This document shows positions 45,701 to 64,000 of a stretch of DNA of 64,000 nt, piece by piece (the first letter of the stretch is position 1; the number at the start of each line of letters is the position of its first letter). The stretch comes from Chrysomallon squamiferum (taxonomy: Eukaryota > Animalia > Mollusca). The notes under the pieces were generated by a model. It saw only the letters and a program-made list of their open reading frames with translations. It did not search any database and was not told the origin of the DNA. The position numbers and the translations under genes are program-made. Where the stretch lies: NCBI GenBank assembly GCA_012295275.1, contig CM022671.1, positions 1,550,001-1,614,000 on the forward strand, given 5' to 3'.

Positions 45701-48550
45701 CTTTATATCCACAACTTCTAAAAATGCATACATTTTCTTTCTTGCAGTCGAATTACACGATTACTTTGAAACAAGTGCTTTCATATTTTTAGTATTTGAA
45801 TTGTAAGTATAATTATGTTTTTTGATTCACATTAAATATATTTTAAAATAAATAAATAAGTTAAAGTTTCAGAATTTAACAAATTTTAATGTTGCATTTT
45901 AGTGTGAAAAGACTCTGATCACCTGTCCACAGTGTTCTTGAATGTTCGGGGTTACTCTGTGAAGATTATTTTAAGTTAAAATAATAACAGTCTTTATTTA
46001 TTAATTTCTTTCTAAAATAAAAAAGTGAAGTAATATTAACAGAACATTCACTGATGCCTACAGAAACTGAAAGAAAAAAAGCCTGTAGAATTTAATTAGT
46101 CTATGACATTCTTATTGAATGTAAATATTTAAACTATGATGACACTGAGGAAAACTGAACCAGCAGTCTGTCATCCCATAGTTCTGACCACTGAGTCACA
46201 GCTACCTTTCATTGTAGTGTTTTGTGTTTAATTTACAGGTGTAACAAAGGTGAACTTTTTGATTATTTAACAGAAGTAGTATCTCTGTCAGAGAAAAGAA
46301 CAAGGTATGTTAATTGTTTTGTCTTGAATACAAGTACTCAGATTCTTAAATTAAACCATTATTACTACTACTACTACTACTGCTGCTACTACTACTACTA
46401 CTACTACTACTACTGCTACTGCTACTATTGCTACTACTACTACTATCACTAGTAGTGGTAGTGGTGGAGGTGGTGTTATTGTTTTATTGTTTGTATTTAT
46501 ATTTTAAAATAATTAAATTACTTCTAGGTTTTTATTTATTTTTTGTATTATTTTATTTTAAATTGCAGTCTTAAAGATATTTTGCTTGTTATATAACTAT
46601 TATTAATTTAGATTTTGCTTCATTGTTATAATTGTATGTATGTATGTGTGTGAATCAGTATATGTTATATTCTAAGTGTGTTTTATATGTAATTTGTACA
46701 TATATTTTTTTTTACAGATTAATCATGCGACAGTTGTTTGAAGCTGTTGACTTTATCCATGGCAAAAATATAGTACACAGAGATCTGAAGGTAACTTAAT
46801 GTATTTATGGTATTTTTATTCATGTGTTTTTCACTTTTTATTTGAAGCTGAAACCAAGTATACACCTTCTGTGAATAAACATTCTTGGTTAATTGTTTTA
46901 AATTGAGGTGAGAACATTTTCACTTAATACTGGCTTTGTTTCAGTTTCTGTTTTGTCATAAATGTAATGTGGCAACAAAGACAATGTGACTGTCAAATAC
47001 TTTAATCTGGTTAATAAGAAAGCATTTATATACATTTATATATCTTGTGTGCCTGTCTGTGTGTGTGTATTTGTATGTGTGTGGGTGTGGGTGTGTTTTT
47101 TTTTTTTTATATATTTTATACTTTATTTTATACTTTATACTTTATATTTTGTATTTTTTTTTTTTTTTTTTTTTTATTATTTATTTCCAGCCTGAAAATA
47201 TTTTGCTAGATGACAACATGAACATCAAAGTGTCCGATTTTGGTTTTGCCACAGATATCAAAAGAGATGATGAATTGTTAGGTAAGAAAGATTTACTTTA
47301 TATTTTCTAGTATTTTCTCTTCTTTACTTACACAGCAGATGTTTTATCTACATAAAATGCTTTAGTCTTAGTAGTCATGTTAAACCTAACAGACAGACAG
47401 AGAAACAGAGATAGCTATATCAATAGGTCTTTTATTACTTAGCTTTCTCTCTTTGTCTTTTACTTTTATGTATCTAAATATTCTCTCTCTCTTTCTCTTT
47501 ACTTTTTTCTCTTCTTCCTTCTTTCCATTCTGTATGATTTAGCTACACATGTAAAAGATGAAAAGAAATAATGCTCAACACTGTATACACTGTGTATCTG
47601 TTAACACTTTTGGAGACTAACTGGTATTAATTACATGTTTTATTCAGAACTGTGTGGAACCCCTGGTTACCTAGCACCTGAAGTTTTAGCTGTTTCCATG
47701 TATGAAAATGTCAAAGGCTATGGGAAACCTGTTGACCTGTAAGTTAATGTCATTAGATCAGTAACCAAGAAAAAAGTTTAAATAAAATAAAACAAGAGGC
47801 AAAATGGTAGAGTCTGGCCAGTTGAAAAATCCTAGAATGAAGATGATAAATATTGATGACTGGCTAGTTGAAAATAAAATCTGATCAGTGTTGATGACTT
47901 AATAGTGGATAAATATTGATGACCAACTAGTCAAAAATAAATTGATATCAAAGTTGATGACTATATAATTTAAACAAGATGAACAAGAATTACAGAATGA
48001 ATTATTATTAAAGTTGATGATAAAATTGCTTTAGATGATTTGATAAATGTGGAATTTTTTTCATTTTTTTTTTTTTTTTTTTTTAATGATTTGCAGGTGG
48101 GCTTGTGGTGTGATTATGTACACTTTGTAAGTTTTATTTTATTTATTTTGTTTCTATTTTAATTTCTTTTTTTTCAAAGTAAAAAGTGAAATGTTTATTC
48201 ATTGTACAGCTCATGCCTGTGCATTCTCAAACGTTTGCACAGATACATCAAATTTAAATGTGCATACAGATGCACACACACACATACATACACAATTACA
48301 CCCACACAAACATCCATGCATGTTCATGCTTGATGTTTAAAACAAACTGAGACACATTCTGGTTTTATTCAGACTGTGTGGATCTCCTCCACACACACAC
48401 ATACGGACACACAGACACATACACACACACAGACACACACTCATACACACAGACACATATACACACACAGATACACAGACACACTCATACACTGAGATAC
48501 ACTGAGATACATTGCTGTTTTATTCAGAATGTGTGGATCTCCTCCACACA

Positions 48551-48593
<43 letters not shown>

Positions 48594-48783
48594 ACACTGA
48601 GACACATTGCTATTTTATTCAGATTGTGTGGATCTCCTCCATACACAAACACACACACAAACACACACACTGAGATACATTGCTGTTTTATTCAGATTGT
48701 GTGGATCTCCTTCATACACAAACACACACACTGAGATACACTGCTGTTTTATTCAGAATGTGTGGATCTCCTCCACACACACA

Positions 48784-48832
<49 letters not shown>

Positions 48833-49388
48833 AAACACACACACTGAGACACATTGCTGTTTTATTCAGAATGTGTGGATCTCCTCCATTCTGGCACAGG
48901 AAGCAGATGTTGATGTTGCGAGCCATCATGCAGGGCAGCTACTCCTTCAACAGCCCCGAGTGGGACGAAGTCTCAGACACACCAAAAGATCTGGTATGTA
49001 ATTCCCTGCTGTCACTATTTTGTTGTTGTTGTTGTTGTTTCAGTACTGCTTTAGAACACCGTATGATCAGCCTTCACTTCTACGTTGCTAAATTTGTCCC
49101 AAGAGAATGAGTGGGTGAGTGAGTTATAGAGCAAGCTGGCATTTACTTGATTCACACAGCTAACTCACATCTGATCCATCATTTTTAATACATGTAAGCA
49201 GATAGCATTCAGCAGTAACAGAAAAAACCCAGAAGTAGTGTAATAGAAAAATAAAGTTAGGTAATAATGATGTCTGTGTTTGTTTAGATAAGAAAACTGT
49301 TGGTTGTTGAACCCAGTGAACGAATCACAGCCAGCGAAGCATTGAATCACACCTTTTTCAGACGTGAAGTAAGTGACCACAGTTTTAC

Positions 49389-49445
<57 letters not shown>

Positions 49446-49670
49446 ACTTACACATATACACATACACATACATATACACTTACACATATACACACACACA
49501 CACATTCACACACACATACACACACCAGACACACACACACATTCACACACACATACACACATCACACACACACATACATACATACATACATACATACATA
49601 CATACATACATACATACATACACACACAAACACACCCATACACACATCACACATACACACATACATACAT

Positions 49671-49703
<33 letters not shown>

Positions 49704-50738
49704 TACACACATCACACACACACACATACATACATACATACACACACACATACACACACAAACACACCCATACACACACACACATAGACTTACACACACA
49801 CACAACAGACACACACACGCACACACATGCACACACACACCAGACACACACATACACACACACATACATACACACAGCAGACACACATATACACAGACAC
49901 ACACACTCACATACAGACACACAGACACACACACAGATACACACACACAGACACACACAACACACACACACACACACACACAATTAAGAAAAACTACCTC
50001 ATTTTATTTAAAATTGTGTTTACAGTACTAATTTTTCAAGCAGATTTTTTAATACATTTGATTATATTTTTGTGTTATTTCAGATGGTTCCAAAAAAGAA
50101 GTTTATGGCAAAAAAGCATTTTTTGGTGAGTGTATTTTTATTCTTAAAAACATTTGACAAATTTGTATAAACTTAGTGAAATAATAAAATAATACTTAAA
50201 AAAAATTATTAGTTGCCTTAATCTTTATAACTCTTTTTTTTTTCTTCATAATTCAACTATATAAATGATATTGTACTGTTTATTTATTTTTTTATTTACT
50301 TAGTTTGTTATGTATTTTCATTTTGATTCTCGTTTTAATTATATATATATATTTTTTTTTATCCAAATTCCTCTTATATTTCACACTTACAGTATTTATA
50401 TAATAAATGATTTTATCTCTTTTATTCAAATTCTGGGCTATCACATACTCAATCTTTCTGTTTGTGAATTATATATAAAATCTTGTTTTCTATTCCAGTC
50501 TGCCATTCTTTGTGTGAGATTCTTTTACCGCCTCCAGTATTTCTATCACCACCCAACCGCGATCTCCTACGAAATAGTGACGACAAATCCTTACAGTGTC
50601 AAACTGCTGCGCAAACTCATAGACGGGTGTGCTTTTGGCATGTACGGACACTGGGTGAAGAAGGGAGACAATCAGAACAGGGCTGCTCTCTTCGAACACC
50701 TCCTGAGAGAGGACTGGAAGGCATCAACACCGACATAA
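36101..50738 (+). CDS. PHKG: Phosphorylase b kinase gamma catalytic chain, 12 coding exons: join(36101..36198,43986..44161,45748..45802,46239..46304,46718..46790,47191..47281,47648..47738,48097..48126,48870..48993,49288..49368,50084..50125,50499..50738), 1167 nt, ~388 aa
   Basis: Manual splicing on GT-AG sites with consistent phases gives [82 protein letters not shown] and the PHKG-specific tail [26 protein letters not shown]. Length is similar to vertebrate PHKG1/2. Confidence 0.95.
38670..38760 (+). promoter_or_regulatory. Candidate internal PHKG promoter
   Basis: Two reverse CCAAT boxes (ctgattggc ~38706, tgattggg ~38740) and TGACCT/TGACCC/GGGTCA nuclear-receptor-type half sites directly upstream of the candidate alternative exon. 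Confidence 0.35.
38838..38941 (+). CDS. PHKG: Candidate alternative first coding exon of PHKG ([34 protein letters not shown])
   Basis: Open frame from ATG (in-frame TAG immediately before) ending in a kinase subdomain-I lead-in Y.F.EVIG, followed by overlapping donors GGA|gtgtga and GT|gtgagt that both join exon 2 in frame. CCAAT boxes lie upstream. Confidence 0.55.
39696..39770 (+). mobile_element. Degenerate tRNA-derived SINE head
   Basis: ggctgTAGCTCAGTGATTAGAGC A-box/D-arm-like; decayed B-box region; no cloverleaf. Confidence 0.45.
43986..44161 (+). CDS. PHKG: PHKG coding exon 2 ([23 protein letters not shown]...HPHI)
   Basis: Gly-loop and VAIK-type lysine. Long T tract then cacagag|; donor A|gtaagt. 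Confidence 0.9.
44164..45290. repeat. Minisatellite, ~32-bp unit (aaagtaacagctygttttacttttaaatactt) with interspersed 24-bp variant (aaaccattttacttttaaatactt), roughly 35 units
   Basis: Directly visible; starts at the PHKG exon 2 donor. Confidence 0.95.
45748..45802 (+). CDS. PHKG: PHKG coding exon 3 ([18 protein letters not shown])
   Basis: cttgcag| ... TT|gtaagt, phases 1 to 2 consistent. Confidence 0.9.
46239..46304 (+). CDS. PHKG: PHKG coding exon 4 ([22 protein letters not shown])
   Basis: tttacag| ... AG|gtatgt; GELFDYL motif. Confidence 0.92.
46718..46790 (+). CDS. PHKG: PHKG coding exon 5 ([24 protein letters not shown])
   Basis: tttacag| ... AAG|gtaact; catalytic loop HRDLK. Confidence 0.92.
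47191..47281 (+). CDS. PHKG: PHKG coding exon 6 ([30 protein letters not shown])
   Basis: tttccag| ... G|gtaaga; DFG motif. Confidence 0.92.
47648..47738 (+). CDS. PHKG: PHKG coding exon 7 ([30 protein letters not shown])
   Basis: ttattcag| ... CT|gtaagt; APE motif; activation-loop Glu (ELCGT) as in PHKG. Confidence 0.92.
48097..48126 (+). CDS. PHKG: PHKG coding exon 8, 30-nt micro-exon ([10 protein letters not shown])
   Basis: ttgcag| ... TT|gtaagt; subdomain IX. Confidence 0.9.
48347..48887 (+). repeat. Six copies of a ~44-bp intron/exon junction (ctgagayacattgctgttttattcag|aHtgtgtggatctcctcc) separated by CA-rich spacers
   Basis: Copies start at ~48347, 48502, 48597, 48670, 48731 and 48844. 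Confidence 0.95.
48870..48993 (+). CDS. PHKG: PHKG coding exon 9 ([41 protein letters not shown])
   Basis: ttttattcag| ... CTG|gtatgt; [12 protein letters not shown] signature. Confidence 0.92.
49288..49368 (+). CDS. PHKG: PHKG coding exon 10 ([27 protein letters not shown])
   Basis: tgtttag| ... GAA|gtaagt; subdomain XI. Confidence 0.9.
49391..49981. repeat. ~590-bp degenerate (CA)n/(CATA)n array filling the PHKG intron after exon 10
   Basis: Directly visible. Confidence 0.95.
50084..50125 (+). CDS. PHKG: PHKG coding exon 11 ([14 protein letters not shown])
   Basis: tatttcag| ... TTG|gtgagt; phase 0/0; position corresponds to the start of the calmodulin-binding tail. Confidence 0.75.
50499..50738 (+). 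CDS. PHKG: PHKG last coding exon ([10 protein letters not shown]...[19 protein letters not shown])
   Basis: tattccag|; conserved [28 protein letters not shown]; TAA ends at 50738. Confidence 0.92.
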   Translation, partial: SAILCVRFFYRLQYFYHHPTAISYEIVTTNPYSVKLLRKLIDGCAFGMYGHWVKKGDNQNRAALFEHLLREDWKASTPT

Positions 50739-53700: not shown

Positions 53701-56192
53701 AATTGTCACTTATGTGAAAAATCTGTTTGAACAGTCACCTACTTAAATAGACCAGTAATATGGACATTTATTTATTTTTTATTTATTTATTTATTTATTT
53801 ATATCCATTTTTAAGTCTATTTTTTAAAATCTGGCTTGAAAAGACAAGTAAAATAATGTTTTATTTGGTTTCAAACCTGTTAGAGGACATTTATTACAAG
53901 ATGACTGATATTTACTGAAGTTTATTTACTGTATTATTTTGTGAAAGAATAGTTCCATATAAAAACAATTTAAAAAAAAAAAATTACGCTAACATGTTTT
54001 TTGTTAATGTAAGATTAGAACTTTTCTTATAACATCTTAGATTTTTTATTTATTTTTTTATTCATTTTGCCACTGTTGATGTTTCAAGAATTTAGAAAAC
54101 ACTTTTCACTCTAATAAAAATTAATATTAGTATTAATGAATAACAGACATAATATTTTATTAATAAATTTATTAAATGAACAAGAGAAAGCAAAAATGAA
54201 GAGAAAACAATTTTTAATAAGATTTTGATGTATCTGTGTGTGTGTGTGTGTGTGTGTTTTTCTATAGATGTATATTTAATTATTATTAAATCTTACTTTA
54301 ATCATGAAACTGATTTTATTTATTTATTTATTTATTTTAATCTTTTTACCTGAAATTAAAGCACACTGTGTTACAGCTTATAACAACATAACAAACTTTA
54401 TATTCATTAGCGACTTTTATAAAGTTCACAGACCCTCCAGTCTTGTTTTTTTTAATTTTATTTAATTTATGTGTACAATCATATAAAATTCCAGATGTGC
54501 ATTTCATCTATATATATATATTTTTAAAAAGTAAATTAATACTGAATATAATAGCAAGAATCACATATACTTGTTTCAAAATTTATTTATTTATTTATTT
54601 AATAAATTAAAAAAGTTATACATAAACAGATATTTATTTTTGTCATTTTTTTTTTCTTTGCCTTCATTACTTAACTGTTCATATTTTAAAAGTTTATTTT
54701 ATTAAATTCTTTGCAGTGTGATCAACATTTGCTATCTGTTTACATGTATTATAGTGACTGTGTTATACGTTTATTATTAGAATGTGCTAAACATATACTG
54801 AACAAAAACAGATTAGGGATCATGGAATATTTGTTCAGTGTTTTAATTCATTTAATGTAATAAATACATGAAATTCAAGACTGATGGTACATGTTGATGC
54901 ATCATGCTTTTTTATGTTGGTAATAAACCTGTTTCATCAGCTAGATATTTCTCATTTCACACTTGAAAATAATTTCATGATACCTAACTTTTTTTTATTA
55001 GTATATTTATTGTTAGGATTTATTAGGAACGGCAACCTAAGACCATGGTTTTCAACTTAATATCTGGTGTGTGTGATGAACAGCATTTAAAACAATAAAT
55101 ACCAGAATGTTTTAACAATTGTTTTAACTGTTATAGCTATGAATTGTTGTTTGCTTACATTGGTATCTTGGGAAATTAATTTCAGTATGAGTTAGTTTGA
55201 ATTTTAGATGAATTTTCTATTGTTAGATGTTGGACATTTGGTTTTCCTATTTTTCCATTAATAGCAGAGGCTGTTTTGTATGTTTTCTCACAGGAAAGTT
55301 TAAACAGATGGGTGCAATGAGTGATTTGATCCCTTGACCATTACACTGACCTGCATCAAATGTTTGATTATTTTAAAGGTGTCTTTATTAAGTTTTACTG
55401 AGAAAGGGAAGACAACGTTAAATATAAATTCATTTAATTCTTATTTGCTGTGTGATATTTGTTGTCCCCCAAAGGGAAAGTTGCTATGTATAGCTGTTCT
55501 GTTCATCCCAGATGAAAGATTGTTCACATAAATTACCAGTCCATGTGTCACAAAGTTCAGGAAACCGCTCACTGTTTGTAGATGTTAGAAAATTATAGCT
55601 TTTTCATTTTTCTACAGGCTGTCCACTGGAATCACAGACAAAAAATATATATTAATCCACGTTTTATTTTACTCACATCATTCACAGTAGGTTTTTTAAT
55701 AGGGCAACGCATGTGATGTAACTGATGAAGTTATTCCGTGTATCATTTTATATATATTTTTTCCTGTGATTTCAAATTGCCTGTTTGTTTAGAGAAATTT
55801 AACAGCATGTGTTAATGAGTTCTCTCCCTTTATTTATTTATTTTCCTATTCTCTTCTTGACATCTAGGATAGTGTTTTAATTTTGTTTAATTCTTCAATA
55901 AAAATCTGAAACTGAACTTGTGATCCTGTTTTTTGTTTAATAAATACATTCGAAAGAAATAGCAGAATTGCATTGTTAGAAAGTATTTCAAGATACTGGA
56001 CCAATCACAACATGACATACATTAACACACATTAGATTTAAAAATAATTTTTATATTATGGCTTTATTAATAAAATAATAAAAACAATTGCACTGAAATA
56101 GAGATAAATCAAAATTTTGTATTCCTTTTCTCACTTATTTGTTTTCTGTGTATTTATTAATGTATGTGTATTTACACAGTGTCAGTTTGAAT

Positions 56193-56375
56193 CTATCTAT
56201 TTACAATTATCTCCAAGTCTTCGTCATCATACACTGGCTCTTCATGGTTTTGCCAGAACGAATCTGACAAGTGATTTAATTTGTTTTCGAGAAAGAAATG
56301 AACAGAAAGATCATTGAAAACTTCATCATGGAGAAAAGTCTGTGGAAGTCTTAGTTCTGTAGTGAAAGGCTGAAT
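56193..56375 (-). CDS. SRRD: SRRD last exon (IQPFTTELRLPQTFLHDEVFNDLSVHFF...DEDLEIIVNR*)
   Basis: U12-type acceptor ttccttaacagattcctag|; TAG ends at 56193. Confidence 0.9.
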   Translation of the reverse strand: MQPFTTELRLPQTFLHDEVFNDLSVHFFLENKLNHLSDSFWQNHEEPVYDDEDLEIIVNR

Positions 56376-57604
56376 CTAGGAATCTGTTAAGGAATGAAGT
56401 AAAAAATATAAGTGGAAGTTTTAATTATAATACTGATTTTAAAAAACTCCTTTTATCCTGTATTTACTAATAATTTTCTTATTATTTATTTATTAACTTT
56501 TAATTATTGCATTATACAAAATGATAGTACTCATCTTTAAAAAGAAACTAAAGTACATTATGTTAATAAATAAAATTGTTCTCCAGCAAAATATAACATA
56601 AATAAAAAATTTTACTCCCCCAAAATAAAGAAAAAATATTTATGTAATTATCTATTATCTGACTGTCAGTTTAGTTTTAGATATTAATCATCAAACAACC
56701 TAATGAAGCTTAGATTTATTTACACTTAAACAGAAATTGTCATTTGATTTGTTTAAATATTTTCAAATGCTCTGACCATTTAAACTATCACTAATGTAAA
56801 ATATGAATGAATATATTGCTGAAATTTTATCTTGTAAATATTATAGTGAGTTACATATTTAGGTTTAAACATCTGCTCTGGACTCACAAATTATAATTCT
56901 GATTTGTTATATCACAGTTTTATCTTTCTAACTAATTAAAATCTGAATGAGTATACTTTTGAAACTTTCTGTTGTAAATGATAGAGTGAATTAAATTTTA
57001 ATTAACAAATATAATGTTATTAATACTGAAGTTTTGCAGAATGTAAAGGATACTCTGATAATGTAAGAACCAGTTTTCTCTAGAAGTCGTTTTGGTGTCC
57101 TGAATTAAAATAAAAAAATAAACAGAAATCAGTTATATCTGAATGTACCTATATTTTAGATTAGTCTACTAATCTGTAAATGTACTTCATGATGTTTCAT
57201 ATTTCACAAATATTTAATAACGTTTTGCCACAATTTATTAACGTTTAAAATATAAATGTATTTTATATCAACTTATTAATGCCTAAAATCCTACACTGAT
57301 CAACATTTTCAAAAATTCTATTTCTGATTAGTCATGTAACAATACTTAGACTTTGACCAATGAACAAGGGTAACTAACTACCTGTGTATCATAGATGAGA
57401 AACTGTTTCCTACGAGAGTGATGTTTGTCAGGTTTTTGAGATTCCAGTTTTCATAGAGTAAATTGTTATACAGAGCTTTACCACAGTGAGGCATCAACAC
57501 CAGACTGGGAACTTCACACTGTCGTTTTCCTTCCTGGGTAGTAATAATAATAACAATAACAATAATAATAATAATAATAACAACAATGACAACAACAACA
57601 GTAA

Positions 57605-57645
<41 letters not shown>

Positions 57646-57649
57646 ATTA

Positions 57650-57690
<41 letters not shown>

Positions 57691-58959
57691 GTAATAATGA
57701 TAATAATAATAACAACAATGATGACAATGACAACAACAACAGTAATAATAATAGTAGCAGTAGTAGTAATAATATTTATAATAATAATGATTATAATTTT
57801 AATTATAACACCAATAATAACAGTATAGTAATAATAAAAATAAGTACAGTGATAGTAAGTATAATGACATTAACCATAACCATAACCATAACAACAATGA
57901 TAACTGTGGTGGTGGTGGTAGTAGTAGTAGTAGTGCACCAGTAATGTTGTAGTTGTCAACTGTACCTCATTTTCTGAAAGTGTGTGGAAGCCAAATTTTT
58001 CTAAAGCTTGTTTTTCCACTTCTGAAAACACTGGATCATAAATATCACTGTTTGACAATGGAATCTAGAAAATAAATAAAATTCTTTTGGAAAGAGAAAA
58101 ATGAGAGAAAAATAGACATTCTTCAGTATATCTTTTAATAATCTAAAACATGCACTGCATATTTCTTCCAAGATATATTTTCCTAGACAGTTCTAGACGG
58201 TAAATATATTTCCATATAATAATCACAACAGATGCTACTTACCTTCAACTGTTCTTGAATAGCCATCAGAAGACAGAGTTGGTACCGAGCAATCAGGCAG
58301 GTGGAGAAATGTCCAATTCCATAACAAACAAACTGTACAACAGAACACTCTGCAGTCTGTTGTGACTCTGAAAGACTGGACTTCTTCAGTAAATCTGAAT
58401 GAATGAATGAATGAATGTTTAATGACACTCCAGCACAAAAAACATAACGGTTGAACAAAAGTAAATGTAACAAACTGGTGATTTACTTTACATAGAAAAA
58501 TTCAAAATTAGTCAAACCACAATGTAAAGAGCTTTACTTAAATTAAAATTTATAGTAAAATTCTGTAAACTCTCAACAATTTTAAAACAAGTTTCATCAT
58601 TTATTTGACAAATATATCCTTCTCTATCTGCCTAAGATGATCACACTCCACCAAAATGTGGTGCACTGTCTGAATACACTGAAGTGTTCACTCTGAGGTA
58701 AGAAATCCTTCTTCAGGATAAATGAATGGGTTAAAATCGAAAAAATATATTGGTGAGTTTGATGCTTAAAATCATTGTAAGGCACATCAACCTCATCACA
58801 AGGCAAATCTAAAGCAGACTTGTTTTTAACATATTTTAGATGGGTACAAATGATAATTTCCTGTTGAATATAATCCCCAGAAATTTAGTCTCTTCCACAA
58901 TAGGAATTGGACTTTTGTCAAGTAAACTGTGTGAATGTTTGTGTGTGCACACACATGCA

Positions 58960-58990
<31 letters not shown>

Positions 58991-60065
58991 CACATTTGTG
59001 AAATTGTGGATACTGAGAATCTGGTTCTCGTATTTTCTGATAATCATGCTCTAAACTTCTACTGTAAACTTCTCAAAATTATCAGAAATATATAACAATT
59101 ATTTATTAAATAAATTACTTTTGTTTTTAAATTATTTATTATATTTGTACTATTCCTTCCCCCCCCATCCATTCAAGGAACTCGATTTACCAAAGAATAT
59201 TTATTATTTAATTTTTAATTTTTAAATTTTCAATTTTAAAAATTTAACAACATCTTGAAAGAATCTGTTTAATAAATCATAAACTTACTGCAAACATCTC
59301 TAAAAAAGTTGCACTCTTTTACTTCATCCCTGTAAAATAGAAAATATAAATTTATTTATATTAAAATTCTCTTTCTAAAAATAACTAAGCAGTGTCTGTT
59401 CAAAACAAGTTTATTTAAAAATAATAACAGTAATTAATTTTTTTAATTTCTTTCTAAAACTAATATTTTCATGCTGAAAAATATACAAAATGTACTGATC
59501 ACTACAAATTAATCACCCATTATCCAAGATAAAACAAGACACTGTCAATGTTTGAACAACATAATTATAATCAGAGGTGATACAAACACACAACACACAT
59601 TATGTAAGCATTAATTCCTCAGTAATATTAGATATTTACAAAATTTATAACTGCAGTGTTCTACATAATAATTTTTCTTTTCTTCAAATATTACTATAAT
59701 ACGATCAACAACGTGAATAATATTAACAAAACAAAAACTAAATAACTAGTGTTAGATGTAAAAAGGGTATCTCTATCAGTTCAGTCAGTTCTGCACTGGA
59801 TTCTCAGCTTCAGTATTTATTAGTGGGCACTGAGTTAACTTATATTCTGAATAAGACATTTAATACAATTACCAGCAACGTTCCACTTTTATTATCAGAT
59901 CCTCCAGAGTTATCTTCAAATCTGCTGTCTCTAGTGTACTGAGGTGTGGATGTTTAACTTTTGTACTTCTTATTTTCCTCCCTTTCTTCTGAGTCACCAA
60001 ACAGAAACCACCATCATCATCATCATCGTTATTGCAATGACATTTAGCTACAACATATTTTAAAT
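56193..60065 (-). CDS. SRRD: SRR1-domain protein (SRRD / SRR1-like): exons 60065 (or 60047)..59873, 59329..59289, 58394..58243, 58064..57966, 57533..57382, 57099..57054, 56375..56193
   Basis: Phase-consistent exons spell GFCLVTQKKGRK, FVCYGIGHFSTCLIARYQL, IYDPVFSEVE, LSENE|EGKR, MPHCGKALYNNLLYENW, VGNSF, VFNDLSVHFF and EEPVYDDEDLEII. These match SRR1-family motifs as recalled from human SRRD (CVCYGIGNF, YDPLFS, SENEEGKR, HCGTALYNNLL, GNSF, FNDTSVH). Confidence 0.92.
56376..57053 (-). other. U12-type (minor spliceosome) GT-AG intron in SRRD
   Basis: 5' site GTATCCTTT (57053-57045) and branch point TTCCTTAAC (56394-56386) ending 10 nt before the 3' end of the intron, with no polypyrimidine tract. 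Confidence 0.92.
57054..57099 (-). CDS. SRRD: SRRD exon (TPKRLLEKTGSYIIR)
   Basis: aattcag| ... AGA|gtatccttt (U12 donor). Confidence 0.85.
57382..57533 (-). CDS. SRRD: SRRD exon (EGKRQCEVPSLVLMPHCGKALYNNLLYENW...VGNSFSSMIHR)
   Basis: tacccag| ... AG|gtagtt. Confidence 0.9.
57541..57935. repeat. (AAT/AAC/GTA)n triplet low-complexity tract filling an SRRD intron
   Basis: Directly visible. Confidence 0.85.
57966..58064 (-). CDS. SRRD: SRRD exon (IPLSNSDIYDPVFSEVEKQALEKFGFHTLSENE)
   Basis: ttttctag| ... GAG|gtacag. Confidence 0.9.
58243..58394 (-). CDS. SRRD: SRRD exon (LLKKSS...FVCYGIGHFSTCLIARYQLCLLMAIQEQLK)
   Basis: cattcag| ... AAG|gtaagt; SRR1 core motif. Confidence 0.9.
58397..58925 (-). 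mobile_element. Internally deleted, degenerate non-LTR retrotransposon (RNase H-bearing, I-like LINE) fragment with (CATT)n tail
   Basis: Broken frames give LDKSPIPIVEETKFLGIIFNRKLSFVP (RT C-terminus), KSALDLPCDEVDVPYNDFKH (end of RNase H region) and LTHSFILKKDFLPQSEH...TVHHILVEC (C-terminal Zn-knuckle region). Ends in gtgctggagtgtcattaaa(catt)n. Recognised from recalled family motifs. Confidence 0.7.
59289..59329 (-). CDS. SRRD: SRRD 41-nt exon (DEVKECNFFRDVC)
   Basis: ttttacag| ... A|gtaagt; bridges phase 2 to phase 1 exactly. Confidence 0.8.
59873..60065 (-). CDS. SRRD: SRRD first exon, no in-frame ATG ((D)LKYVVAKCHCNNDDDDDGGFCLVTQKKGRKIRSTK...KVERC)
   Basis: Open frame across the exon; donor TG|gtaatt; 5' boundary uncertain (acceptors giving exon starts 60065, 60047, 59988). 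Confidence 0.7.
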
Positions 60066-60510
60066 CTGTTAATACATTTGTTATTATAAGTGTGAAATAA
60101 TTTGCATAATACTGTTGTACATATCAAATATTTAATTTTAATGTGTCATTAATTTAAAAAAAGTCCCTTTACAACTTACATTGTTTATTATATATTTTTA
60201 AATCTTTATTTGTGAAACTGATAATTTTAATCTTTATAAATAATAAAAAAAATTGTTTTAAAAAATTATATAATTCAACTGATAATTACAATAATAACAA
60301 AAAATCAAAAAATTAAAAATATTTTGAACATATAGCAGATAACAGGAAATATCAAAATATAATGGCAGATAATAATAAAAGAATAAAATATATTTCACTG
60401 TACAAATTTCTAATATTTAAAATAATAAAAATATAAAGGCAACTAATAACAGTTAGTATTAAGAAAATGCAAATTAATGATATACAAATTAAATACCTAC
60501 CTATACATAC

Positions 60511-60973
60511 CTTTCTCAGTTTCTTTCATACTTTGGTTTTCTAACTCATGTTTGCTATCACCAGCCAAGTCACTTGATTTTTTATCTGATCTTTCACTTT
60601 CTATCATTTTATACCCTGTTTCACATTCGTCTTCCATTTCTAAATTCCCAGATTTGAATAAAACTGACGACTTTCTCTCCATTTCTTTATTTGTGTTCAA
60701 ACAACAATTTTCTCCAGCACTGCATTTGTCAAGTATGATTTTATCTTTTTCACTGCTCTCAGTTACTGGCGGTTTATCCATTTTCAAATCCTTTTCCTGG
60801 ATGATGTCACCAGCCTCATTTCCAGAAGTCCTGATTCTGATTGGTTGAGACCTGCGAGATCGCTGAGGTCTGTGGACCTCATTGTTAACAGTCCACGGAC
60901 CCAAACTGTCGTTAGCGTAAAAGTCCATGGGATAAACATCTCGCCACTGTGTGCTGTTCAGAGCTACAGACAG
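60511..60973 (-). CDS. DPH1: DPH1 exon with conserved end ([17 protein letters not shown]) plus ~120-aa charged low-complexity extension
   Basis: ccactcag|; phase-1 donor GAG AAA G|gtatgt at 60511. Read-through would stop at TAG 60497 (GMYR*). Confidence 0.85.
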
Positions 60974-62010
60974 CTGAGTGGAAAGAAAAACTATTTTTAT
61001 ATATATATAGTCTGAACACACTGAATAATTTTATTTATAAATGCCCAAATTATTTTTTTATTTATTTTTCACAACTACTCTTTGCTAATTATAGAGTTTG
61101 ACAACGTGAAGCCCTTGGAAGTGCATAGAAGGCTATCTTGCCATACTGATTTTATACATAAACTGCATAAAAGCCTTCTTACTGAGCAAACAAGTGTTAG
61201 CTTCTTTATTTTTTATTTTAATGTCACTCTTTATTATTTGCAAAAATTGGTACATATAAAAACATACAAGGCAGTTTGTTCATAACACAACAATTTCAAC
61301 TTAAGCTGAAATAAAATTAAATAAAATAAACAGCTGGTCTGAAACTTCCATATATGCAGATAGATATTACGGAACACATAAACACATTTAGCGTATTTTC
61401 ATGTACATATTTAATTTTACTTTATCTCTTGACACAACTATTTTGCTTGTGTAAAAATTTCTGTAAGATACCTTCACTAATATTTAAACAGCTAAAAATA
61501 ATAATAATAATAATAAAAGAAATGTAGACTTACTTCATAAGGTGACAGCAGAGGTTTATCAAAGGCTGCACCCCAGTCTATGGAAAGTCTAGGACAGGCT
61601 ATCTGAACCCATCTGAAAACACATAACATCTACATTTTACTTTCTATGTGGTAAAGTGATTTTTTACTTAGTTTATTCTGTTAACAAATTCTGCAGATGT
61701 TTGTTTCTAATGTCTTCTAAACATTAAATCAAAGAACAACTTCAGTCATAACAGTTTACAAATTTAATGACAATATTTACAATTTTTCTCTTGAACAATA
61801 TTTTTATCAGTTTAAAATAAACTTTGACAGCTGTATATCGTAAACGTGATCCTGTGATGAGAAATTTGTAGTGAAAATAACACTCACGCATCAACATCTG
61901 AAAAGAGTTTGAGTTTGTCAGGATACAGTTCTGACAGTAGAACTGTCACACTCTGTCGGCCAGTGTCAGTGATCCTCTTTTGAAGATGCTGATAAAAAAT
62001 ATATGACATA

Positions 62011-62041
<31 letters not shown>

Positions 62042-62518
62042 ACCAGTATCTGTACATACATATATACACACATACACACACATATACTTTGACAAGCACT
62101 AAAAATACAGAATAAGCTTTCTGAAAACCAGAAAACCAGAAAATATCAGAAAAACCATTCTAGTATTTCAGCCACTGTCTTTCTTTAAAATCAGTTAACA
62201 AAAACAGACAACTAATTTGCCACATCTTGGTTCTAATAACATTCTTATTTCTTACATTTACTCTGTATTTACAATTTCTTTTTTCTAAAATGTTCTTTCT
62301 GATTAAAATATGTTAAACAATTGTCTAAGGATTATTTTGATGAATGTATGAATGAATTATCGTGCTGAACTATATATATACAATTTTATTATTATTACTA
62401 ACACTACTACTACTATTTCTTAAATTAATTCAAAATTTTAAAATTTTTAAATAAATTAAATCCTAAATTATCTATAGAGAACAAATGTTTAAAAAAAAAT
62501 AAAATAAAAAATATAAAA

Positions 62519-62549
<31 letters not shown>

Positions 62550-64000
62550 AATTTTAAAAAGAGGAACATGTCAATATATTCACTGACGAATTTTTCCGTT
62601 ACACTGTACCTCCAGTATTTTTGGTGATCCCTGTCGACCGAGAGTTCCAAACACAATTCCAATCCTGCTGGCCTGTGACGCGATTCTAATAGCAGACTGA
62701 CGAACTTCGTGCATTTTTTTAATGTCATAGTACTCACGTGAGAAATCTTTACTGTACGGATCATATCTGAACAAAAACAAAAATAAAACTATTAAGAATA
62801 TGTTAAGATATGGATCAAATGTGAAACAAAAGATTTTCATTATTCTATGGATCATATATGAAATTAATGACCAACCTGTAAGCTGGAATGGTTGGATTGT
62901 GAATCATTATAGATTCTAAGTGAAATCTCCCATCTCCGAGATATCTGAAAATATCAACTACAAGATAAGTAAAACATGAACATTTTAAAATAAAAATGAT
63001 ATTTTTAGATTAGGCGCAAAAGATAGTGTCCTGTCAAATACATTTTTTGTCTCCTTTGCAACTGTTTTGAGAATTTTGTCAAGCTATTACTGTGTTCTAA
63101 ATAAAGACACATTCTGACAGAAATGCATTCAGAACACACCACATGTAAATGATTAAACTACAATCTGCAGAATAAGTAACATAAATTATTGCTTTTCTTT
63201 CTATTATAATTACATTTTTATTGAAACAAGGAATGAACTTAACTAAATTTCATTTCTAAAAACACAAACATAAAACAATATTTACATGATTGCATCTGTG
63301 TTATGAAGTCTGGGAGAGGTACACCCGAGAATCTCACCAGGAGAGAGAGGTTTTGACTGTGGGATGTTCACTGTGAAGTCTTTACTGAGAACACTGCTAG
63401 CTGACTGAAATTAGATCAGTTATATAAATATATACCAGCTTAAGAAACCTGAAATACTTTTATACAACATTTATACATCTGTTACAACATAATAACCAAA
63501 AAATGAAACTCTCACTGCAACATTAAGGGATATTCAAAAAAACTATTAGTTTACCTGTAACTAACTGCTTGATGAGTGACAACTACATTTCTGAGCAAAG
63601 GGCTGTTCCTAATGATTAAACTGAATGGTCAATAAACTACAGCCATGTTTGAAAGTAAAATGATATTGCTAATGACTACATAGCTGACAAGTGACAACTG
63701 TGTTTCAGAACAATAAAGTCTTTCCTAAAGGCTAAAGAGCTGAGTTACCTGAAAACTGTGTTTCAGAACAATAAAGTCTTTCCTAAAGGCTAAAGAGCTG
63801 AGTTACCTGAAAACTGTGTTTCAGAACAATAAAGTCTTTCCTAAAGGCTAAAGAGCTGAGTTACCTGAAAACTGTGTTTCAGAACAATAAAGTCTTTCCT
63901 AATGGCTAAAGAGCCAAGTTACCTGAAGGGCTGTGACAAACTGAATGGTGCTGACGAATGCCAGAGAAGACCCAGGTGTGAAGTTAAACTGAACAGTCTC
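60511..64000 (-). CDS. DPH1: DPH1 (2-(3-amino-3-carboxypropyl)histidine synthase subunit 1), 5'-partial: exons 64000..63923, 63404..63286, 62944..62876, 62766..62610, 61988..61888, 61612..61534, 60973..60511
   Basis: Phase-consistent GT-AG exons spell [93 protein letters not shown] and [15 protein letters not shown], all DPH1 hallmarks. The gene continues past the window edge. Confidence 0.95.
61534..61612 (-). CDS. DPH1: DPH1 exon ([26 protein letters not shown])
   Basis: ttttcag| ... GAA|gtaagt; ACPRL motif. Confidence 0.92.
61888..61988 (-). CDS. DPH1: DPH1 exon ([33 protein letters not shown])
   Basis: ttttatcag| ... GC|gtgagt. Confidence 0.9.
62610..62766 (-). CDS. DPH1: DPH1 exon ([14 protein letters not shown]...[13 protein letters not shown])
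   Basis: ttgttcag| ... GAG|gtacag. Confidence 0.92.
62876..62944 (-). CDS. DPH1: DPH1 exon ([23 protein letters not shown])
   Basis: ttttcag| ... AG|gttggt. Confidence 0.92.
63286..63404 (-). CDS. DPH1: DPH1 exon ([39 protein letters not shown])
   Basis: tttcag| ... AT|gtaaat; GEILGCT motif with a conserved Cys. Confidence 0.92.
63696..63927. repeat. Tandem repeat, 58-bp unit, 4 copies, spanning a DPH1 donor site
   Basis: tttcagaacaataaagtc recurs at 63703, 63761, 63819 and 63877. Confidence 0.95.
63923..64000 (-). CDS. DPH1: DPH1 exon (partial; [26 protein letters not shown])
   Basis: Open frame to the window edge; donor CAG|gtaact. Confidence 0.88.

Follow-up and report, generated by a model that had tools for sequence, protein, structure and literature searches.

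The minus strand of a 64,000-nt stretch of Chrysomallon squamiferum DNA (assembly GCA_012295275.1, contig CM022671.1, positions 1,550,001 to 1,614,000; hereafter the window) carries the 3' part of the diphthamide enzyme gene DPH1, followed in the same orientation by the exons of an SRR1-domain gene, SRRD. RNA contigs join the two into one transcription unit, the splicing of which gives either an in-frame DPH1-linker-SRRD fusion or DPH1 alone. The fusion is real, lineage-limited and splice-switched, the protein itself being predicted from RNA and DNA. In the whole account favoured here, to which we assign a probability of roughly 0.8, DPH1 and SRRD are spliced over a 463-nt intron with two donors and one acceptor, and SRRD would be made only as part of the fusion.

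Two 5' splice sites and one acceptor between DPH1 and SRRD

A preliminary description of this locus, drawn from the DNA alone, had predicted a single transcription unit with both products and had placed the switch in the choice of the 3' splice site. The stretch was present in five public runs, four of which were RNA from one study, and contigs from those four (runs X1–X4) were aligned to window positions 59860–60990 only, junctions beyond this interval being known through the loose ends of the contigs. Such contigs have low depth, drop rare forms, do not represent single molecules and leave transcription starts invisible. Two joints were detected, both with GT..AG ends and both leading to the acceptor at 60047. 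The joint from 60511 in run X3 (depth 2.6, shorter flank 103 nt) continued in frame into SRRD, and that from 60501 in run X1 (depth 7.6, shorter flank 176 nt) gave the stop form, so that the single unit with a fused and a DPH1-only product was borne out. As the acceptor is the same in both joints and the donors differ, however, the switch sits at the 5' splice site, where two donors lie 10 nt apart, and not at the acceptors; the donor at 60501 had been overlooked. The contig of run X1 (1347 nt) started in upstream DPH1 sequence, crossed the linker and reached SRRD exons 1 and 2; at its loose ends it matched the preceding DPH1 exon and exon 2 of SRRD. In run X2 one contig stopped exactly at 60511 and another started at 60049, i.e. 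with two letters common to both donors, a break that we infer to be the branch expected when both splice forms coexist; the depth difference in this run (16.1 versus 6.78) was left unused, because contig depth cannot rank gene parts. The contigs of run X4 did not cover the junction.

Of the splices initially envisaged for the donor at 60511, that to 60047 was thus seen, whereas those to 60065 and 59988 were found in none of the contigs of the four runs, from which minor use of these acceptors may escape; contigs of runs X1, X2 and X3 continued unbroken across 59988. No RNA contig from any of the four runs lay over 60050–60500, and two AATAAA sequences in the joining intron, at 60210 and 60189, were without contig cover, which does not prove their disuse. 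Separately, eight differences between the RNA contigs and the window were counted within 59919–60757, seven of which alter a residue, one is silent and none breaks the frame; these may be alleles or errors.

The splice signals noted beforehand were all recovered at their positions on the minus strand. The donor at 60511 (AAAG/gtatgt, phase 1) ends the DPH1 exon 60973–60511, the acceptors at 60065 and 60047 both hold the SRRD frame, the acceptor at 59988 closes the frame after 11 residues, and intron read-through from the DPH1 exon meets a stop at 60497. The gap is indeed AT-rich, with 17% G+C and no CpG over 60500–60048. As 27 AG dinucleotides lie 3' of the donor at 60511 within the gap and the first SRRD exon, the DNA alone cannot tell which acceptor is used. 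Splicing of the donor at 60501 to 60047 brings in a TAA at 60046–60044, so that DPH1 ends in GMYS followed by the stop, which in the DPH1-only RNA lies 171 nt 5' of the next junction and has six junctions downstream. A stop well upstream of the last junction marks an RNA for nonsense-mediated decay, by which the DPH1-only RNA might be removed in part, yet this form was assembled in run X1. The DPH1 core is intact in both splice forms.

The linker is rich in E, S and K and runs for 118 codons, five of which are in-frame Met codons, without a stop, while the other frames hold 8 and 17 stops and none of 10000 shuffles equalled it. On the SRRD side, the lack of an in-frame ATG in the first exon was upheld, no ATG in the SRRD frame being present between 60507 and 59873. 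The earliest in-frame Met of the SRRD part (282 residues) is at residue 116, inside the domain; the stop form therefore cannot yield an intact SRRD.

The SRRD half and a fused counterpart in Gigantopelta aegis

With the last DPH1 exon as query, 37 of 228 candidates passed, and the top match was a Gigantopelta aegis RefSeq protein of 770 amino acids (aa) with both domains. This protein (XP_041349563.1, isoform X2) and XP_041349562.1 (804 aa, isoform X1) fall into one cluster and are named in RefSeq only as 'DPH1-like isoforms', but both exceed the Pfam cut-offs for Diphthamide_syn and SRR1; against PF01866 the G. aegis orthologue scored 397 bits at a cut-off of 33.2. The search for proteins with both domains, which had been proposed beforehand, thus succeeded in a related genome, and the domain pair of the fusion is already in RefSeq, unlabelled. 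The earlier statement that no such fusion was described holds for publications, none on a DPH1-SRRD fusion having been found in literature mostly outside subscription journals, but not for RefSeq with its two unlabelled entries. A word search of the main text of the G. aegis genome paper (PMC7895826) gave no mention of DPH1 or SRRD. New here are the switch between donors and, given below, the neighbourhood of the two genes in limpets.

When the window frame was aligned end to end with the longer G. aegis isoform, Diphthamide_syn, linker and SRR1 were colinear, with 200 of 236 residues identical in the DPH1 core (85%), 32 of 106 in the linker (~30%) and 170 of 280 in SRRD (~61%). Each of the two G. 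aegis models begins at the DPH1 start and continues to the end of SRRD. The isoforms have 492 leading and 278 trailing residues in common and differ by 34 residues at the junction, which suggests, at the level of the predicted proteins, a choice of donor there as well; in contrast to the window, both listed isoforms are in frame. A short internal duplication was also noted in the G. aegis linker (P0038, residues ~470–527), spanned by the 34-residue difference, as if the donor region had been duplicated.

All six conserved SRRD motifs that were checked are retained in the window, the conserved SRR1 residues being G-x-G, D-P, H-C and G-N-S-F, with conservation measured over 75 rows. Passages of PMC10219947 report the D-P and H positions as important in Srr1 of fission yeast, to which the window is matched by motif. 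That these motifs are kept while the linker drifts argues for translation of the SRRD half and for selection on it. Of 80 SRR1 proteins that look full-length, 44 have the N-terminal motif at most 12 residues from the Met and 51 at most 60, and SRRD starts with its own Met in Haliotis, Nucella, Patella and Bradybaena. Such a start codon close before the motif is missing in SRRD exon 1 of the window, where the motif comes after the splice junction, as it does in G. aegis, in which the junction falls just ahead of it. As the motif follows the junction in both species, the whole of SRRD appears to have been captured, with only its start lost.

The Haliotis SRRD model (P0047; predicted local distance difference test score 87.5) gave a best Foldseek E of 1.9e-3, with no match at E 0.001 or better, and in a structure comparison a best Z of 8.4 with a root-mean-square deviation of 3.3 over 152 residues, only one of 48161 chains having a Z of at least 8. 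Its nearest solved folds were nearly all class I S-adenosylmethionine (SAM)-dependent methyltransferase-like, with middling scores, and the SRR1 domain has a conserved G-x-G after the first strand. The similarity between SRR1 and methyltransferase folds has already been noted in parts of PMC10219947, and the biochemical function of SRRD is described as uncharacterised in a passage of PMC12455975.

Distribution, origin and layout of the fused gene

In our sequence searches the fusion was found in one further species only, G. aegis. An SRR1 domain was listed in none of the other 36 DPH1 matches, and no DPH1 match occurred among the best 150 of 613 SRR1 hits from a library of 1.84 billion. A search with the SRRD half among proteins of 423–1348 aa passed 3 of 1603 candidates, of which only that of G. 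aegis has DPH1; as this search depends on shared words and lengths, other fusions can escape it. Long SRR1 hits considered as fusions (P0062 with 711 aa, P0046, P0043, P0116, P0144, P0081, P0079, P0042, P0158, P0040 and P0041) were without a DPH1 domain, P0062 being a Nucella SRRD with an internal repeat. With a single 50-residue SRRD exon, a weak query, none of 11 candidates passed. Beside stand-alone DPH1 (PF01866) and SRRD/SRR1/Ber1 (PF07985) of other molluscs, the two halves in the window are ordinary, intact family members. Among the DPH1 proteins, P0028 (611 aa, ENA) has a weak Yae1_N match below the cut-off (residues 492–525, E 3.3e-5) and may be another DPH1 fusion; Yae1 is presumably an Fe-S targeting factor.

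In limpets the two genes encode separate proteins, with consecutive accessions in Lottia gigantea (ESO97944.1/ESO97943.1) and Patella vulgata (XP_050408878.1/879.1) and consecutive locus tags in Patella caerulea (SNE40_003593/003594), and in all three the DPH1 and SRRD records also list contigs of equal size. In Octopus bimaculoides the two records agree only in the size of the listed contig. The record look-up covered 20 of the 150 SRR1 hits. DPH1 and SRRD were thus probably neighbours before fusing, their adjacency, strand and order being read from accession numbers. The limpet DPH1 proteins (P0007 and P0010; Patella) carry a low-complexity tail reaching 117 and 148 residues past the last conserved motif, and the long DPH1 tail accordingly seems older than the fusion. 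In the SRRD tree the two fused halves were sisters with support of 92/92, under the starred threshold; 6 of the 10 inner branches were open, so that no order of events can be read from it.

We propose that earlier gastropods, like limpets, had DPH1 and SRRD side by side as separate genes, and that SRRD, its own start being lost, turned into downstream exons of DPH1 in this lineage. SRRD would now be made solely as a fusion from the DPH1 promoter: the donor at 60511 would leave the frame open and give the DPH1-linker-SRRD protein, that at 60501 would bring a stop just past the junction and give DPH1 alone, and the ratio of the two donors could set the dose of SRRD relative to DPH1. The two folded domains would probably be independent, on a flexible and fast-evolving linker, and the fusion is probably the only SRRD source of this snail.

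The locus lies in AT-rich animal DNA full of microsatellites and comprises 7 DPH1 exons, between the edge of the window and 60511, and 7 SRRD exons, between 60047 and 56193; every inner exon end is AG/GT (Table 1). The joined frame in the window has 637 residues and a single terminal stop. A Pfam scan of 11 exon peptides placed Diphthamide_syn on four upstream and SRR1 on three downstream exons, the gathering score being exceeded by two of the four PF01866 matches and by three exon peptides for PF07985. We assume three conserved Fe-S cysteines for the DPH1 family; two Cys motifs are found in the window exons, and the place for the third falls in exons outside the window. AATAAA sequences lie at 56158 and 56068, 3' of the SRRD stop.

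Table 1. Features of the fused gene, in window coordinates
Feature	Position	Strand	Evidence
DPH1 exon, 3' part only (5' exons of the gene outside the window)	63923..64000	-	77% identity to G. aegis DPH1 residues 171-196; GT donor
DPH1 exon	63286..63404	-	Pfam Diphthamide_syn E 9.7e-5; AG/GT ends
DPH1 exon	62876..62944	-	AG/GT ends; colinear with G. aegis DPH1
DPH1 exon	62610..62766	-	Pfam Diphthamide_syn E 1.3e-12
DPH1 exon	61888..61988	-	Pfam Diphthamide_syn E 6.6e-4
DPH1 exon	61534..61612	-	Pfam Diphthamide_syn E 3.4e-11; 3' end matches the loose end at 60973 of the run X1 contig
Last DPH1 exon, ~36 core codons and 118-codon linker	60511..60973	-	Run X1 and X2 contigs cover the whole exon
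Donor 1, AAG/GTATGT, exon end 60511; with 60047 gives in-frame fusion	60505..60513	-	Run X3 joint
Donor 2, TAG/GTAGGT, exon end 60501; with 60047 gives frameshift, DPH1 ends	60495..60503	-	Run X1 joint
Joining intron, former intergenic gap; 463 nt (donor 1) or 453 nt (donor 2)	60048..60510	-	GT..AG ends; skipped in RNA
TAA ending the DPH1-only form; off-frame in the fusion	60044..60046	-	
SRRD exon 1, acidic-GF-x-x-V-basic N-terminal motif, without in-frame ATG	59873..60047	-	Linked to exon 2 in 4/4 runs (loose ends)
SRRD exon 2	59289..59329	-	Start matched by loose ends in 4/4 runs; AG/GT ends
SRRD exon 3, YGIG motif	58243..58394	-	Pfam SRR1 E 3.8e-9
SRRD exon 4, YDP motif	57966..58064	-	Pfam SRR1 E 6.7e-6
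SRRD exon 5, PHCG motif	57382..57533	-	Pfam SRR1 E 1.6e-11
SRRD exon 6	57054..57099	-	76% identity to G. aegis residues 729-745
SRRD last coding exon, stop at 56195-56193	56193..56375	-	65% identity to G. aegis residues 745-804

Two further observations concern the surroundings. A 58-nt unit is repeated 4.1 times with a 97% match at 63692–63927, beginning at a DPH1 donor, so that a 5' splice-site sequence has been copied four times into the intron. On the plus strand, at ~46990–50738, exon-like pieces of a protein kinase gene face the 3' end of SRRD; one of four scanned gave a weak Pkinase match below the cut-off (E 3.5e-5), and we take the peptides to resemble phosphorylase kinase gamma.

Competing readings and comparison with known systems

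Several points weigh against one splice-switched unit in which SRRD is made only as the fusion. The in-frame joint was seen in one of four runs (depth 2.6) and the stop joint likewise in one, in low-depth contigs of a single study; the G. aegis proteins are predicted models, and neither of the two members of their cluster is a stop form; limpet adjacency comes from accession numbers and not from DNA; a second SRRD copy may lie elsewhere in the genome, the analysis being of this 64-kb window; and an internal start at one of the in-frame Met codons of the linker, one of which is 6 codons ahead of the junction, could give stand-alone SRRD. The last point leads to an arrangement of overlapping genes, in which a second promoter in or near the last DPH1 exon would give a short RNA, spliced from the donor at 60511, in which SRRD begins at one of the linker Mets (e.g. 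60529), while full DPH1 RNAs would mostly use that at 60501. We regard this as unlikely. It would fit the observations that the sole in-frame contig, that of run X3, extends only 103 nt upstream, to 60613, that the contig with upstream DPH1 exons (run X1) has the stop joint, and that the Met 6 codons before the junction, like Met520 and Met513 in G. aegis isoform X1 (7 and 14 residues ahead of it), has the usual spacing of an SRRD start. However, between residues 405 and 506 G. aegis isoform X2 lacks any Met and is nevertheless in frame, both models of this species lead from the DPH1 start into SRRD, the linker is free of stops to an extent that no shuffle reached, and the short extent of the X3 contig fits its low depth, cover in this run being patchy elsewhere too. 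Occasional read-through splicing of close neighbours, giving no useful fusion protein, would also account for low depth, a single study and one contig per joint, and PMC12964723 describes many lineage-specific fusion models in annotations as artefacts. As the joint is carried by de novo RNA contigs, the same colinear fusion occurs in a second species, and the first exon of an otherwise intact and conserved SRRD is devoid of a start codon, we consider such noise very improbable. Scarcely any credence remains for the originally proposed acceptor switch, with the donor at 60511 choosing among 60065, 60047 and 59988: all three AGs are present and give the predicted frames, but 60065 and 59988 were unused in the four runs, three of which read through 59988, and the observed stop form stems from the donor at 60501.

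The preliminary description had also hinted at a functional link between SRRD and diphthamide, which is unsupported. DPH1 uses SAM, and together with the methyltransferase-like fold of SRRD this keeps a partner reading alive at low odds: SRRD would act on eEF2 alongside the radical-SAM enzyme DPH1-DPH2, and both neighbourhood and fusion would have been selected. It is doubtful that SRRD is an unrecognised diphthamide partner, kept adjacent to DPH1 in molluscs for co-expression and hard-wired into one protein in vent snails, with its dose tuned by a 10-nt donor shift; if it were, the fusion would be the first pointer to a biochemical role of the SRR1/BER1/SRRD family. The adjacency in three limpets, the equal-sized listed contigs in Octopus bimaculoides and the weak fold match of the predicted SRRD model could be taken in favour of shared function, as could a rise of EEF2 in SRRD-knockout cells in two tables of the supplements of PMC10868785 (log fold change (logFC) 0.37, adjusted P 4e-4, and 0.85, adjusted P 3e-5). 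In a word search of the same supplements DPH2 falls and DPH5 rises in one knockout table, among many changed genes, but DPH1 is unchanged in the knockout tables, the human SRRD proximity table is without DPH1, DPH2, DPH3 and DPH5, and EEF2 is not enriched in it (logFC -0.26, adjusted P 0.31); the main text has no match for DPH or EEF. BER1/SRR is mentioned nowhere in the main text of PMC12067850 on partners of the diphthamide enzymes, and in a passage of PMC4924995 SRRD held up on endogenous SQSTM1 whereas DPH1 did not. In one assay reported in part of PMC3709272, C-terminal truncations of yeast Dph1 act like nulls, and both window forms keep the core. A common fold proves no function and the fusion is found in only one other named species; as prior adjacency explains a fusion without shared function, the fusion is a weak pointer to it, and a selected partnership appears improbable.

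The splice-switched unit is an RNA-supported merger of two ancient housekeeping genes in an animal lineage, the likely earlier state of which is visible in limpets, and it offers a direct view of read-through splicing becoming a fixed fusion. It means that SRRD tolerates, and perhaps here needs, a whole enzyme at its N-terminus, and that 'DPH1-like' database entries conceal the SRRD of this lineage.

The pattern of annotation artefacts set out in PMC12964723, with no de novo RNA support and a break of cover between the domains, is not matched, as de novo contigs cross the junction and those of runs X1 and X2 cover the whole linker. The closest likeness is to human MOCS1, for which, according to parts of bioRxiv 10.1101/429183, splicing at the end of open reading frame 1 (ORF1) gives either MOCS1A alone or in-frame MOCS1AB, ORF2 is not expressed independently, and type II differs by only 15 nt of exon 9. 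In both genes splicing where the first frame ends, here by the joint 60501–60047 or 60511–60047, decides between a stop and an in-frame two-domain fusion. The silence of MOCS1 ORF2 may or may not have a parallel in SRRD, the first exon of which is without ATG but the linker of which has in-frame Mets. In MOCS1, A and B each account for one step of the same pathway, A has no activity when fused, and mitochondria are the site at which the fusion is cleaved, whereas for DPH1-SRRD no shared pathway, inactivation or cleavage is known, both forms retain the complete DPH1 core, the stop comes past the junction, and the arrangement is seemingly confined to one snail lineage.

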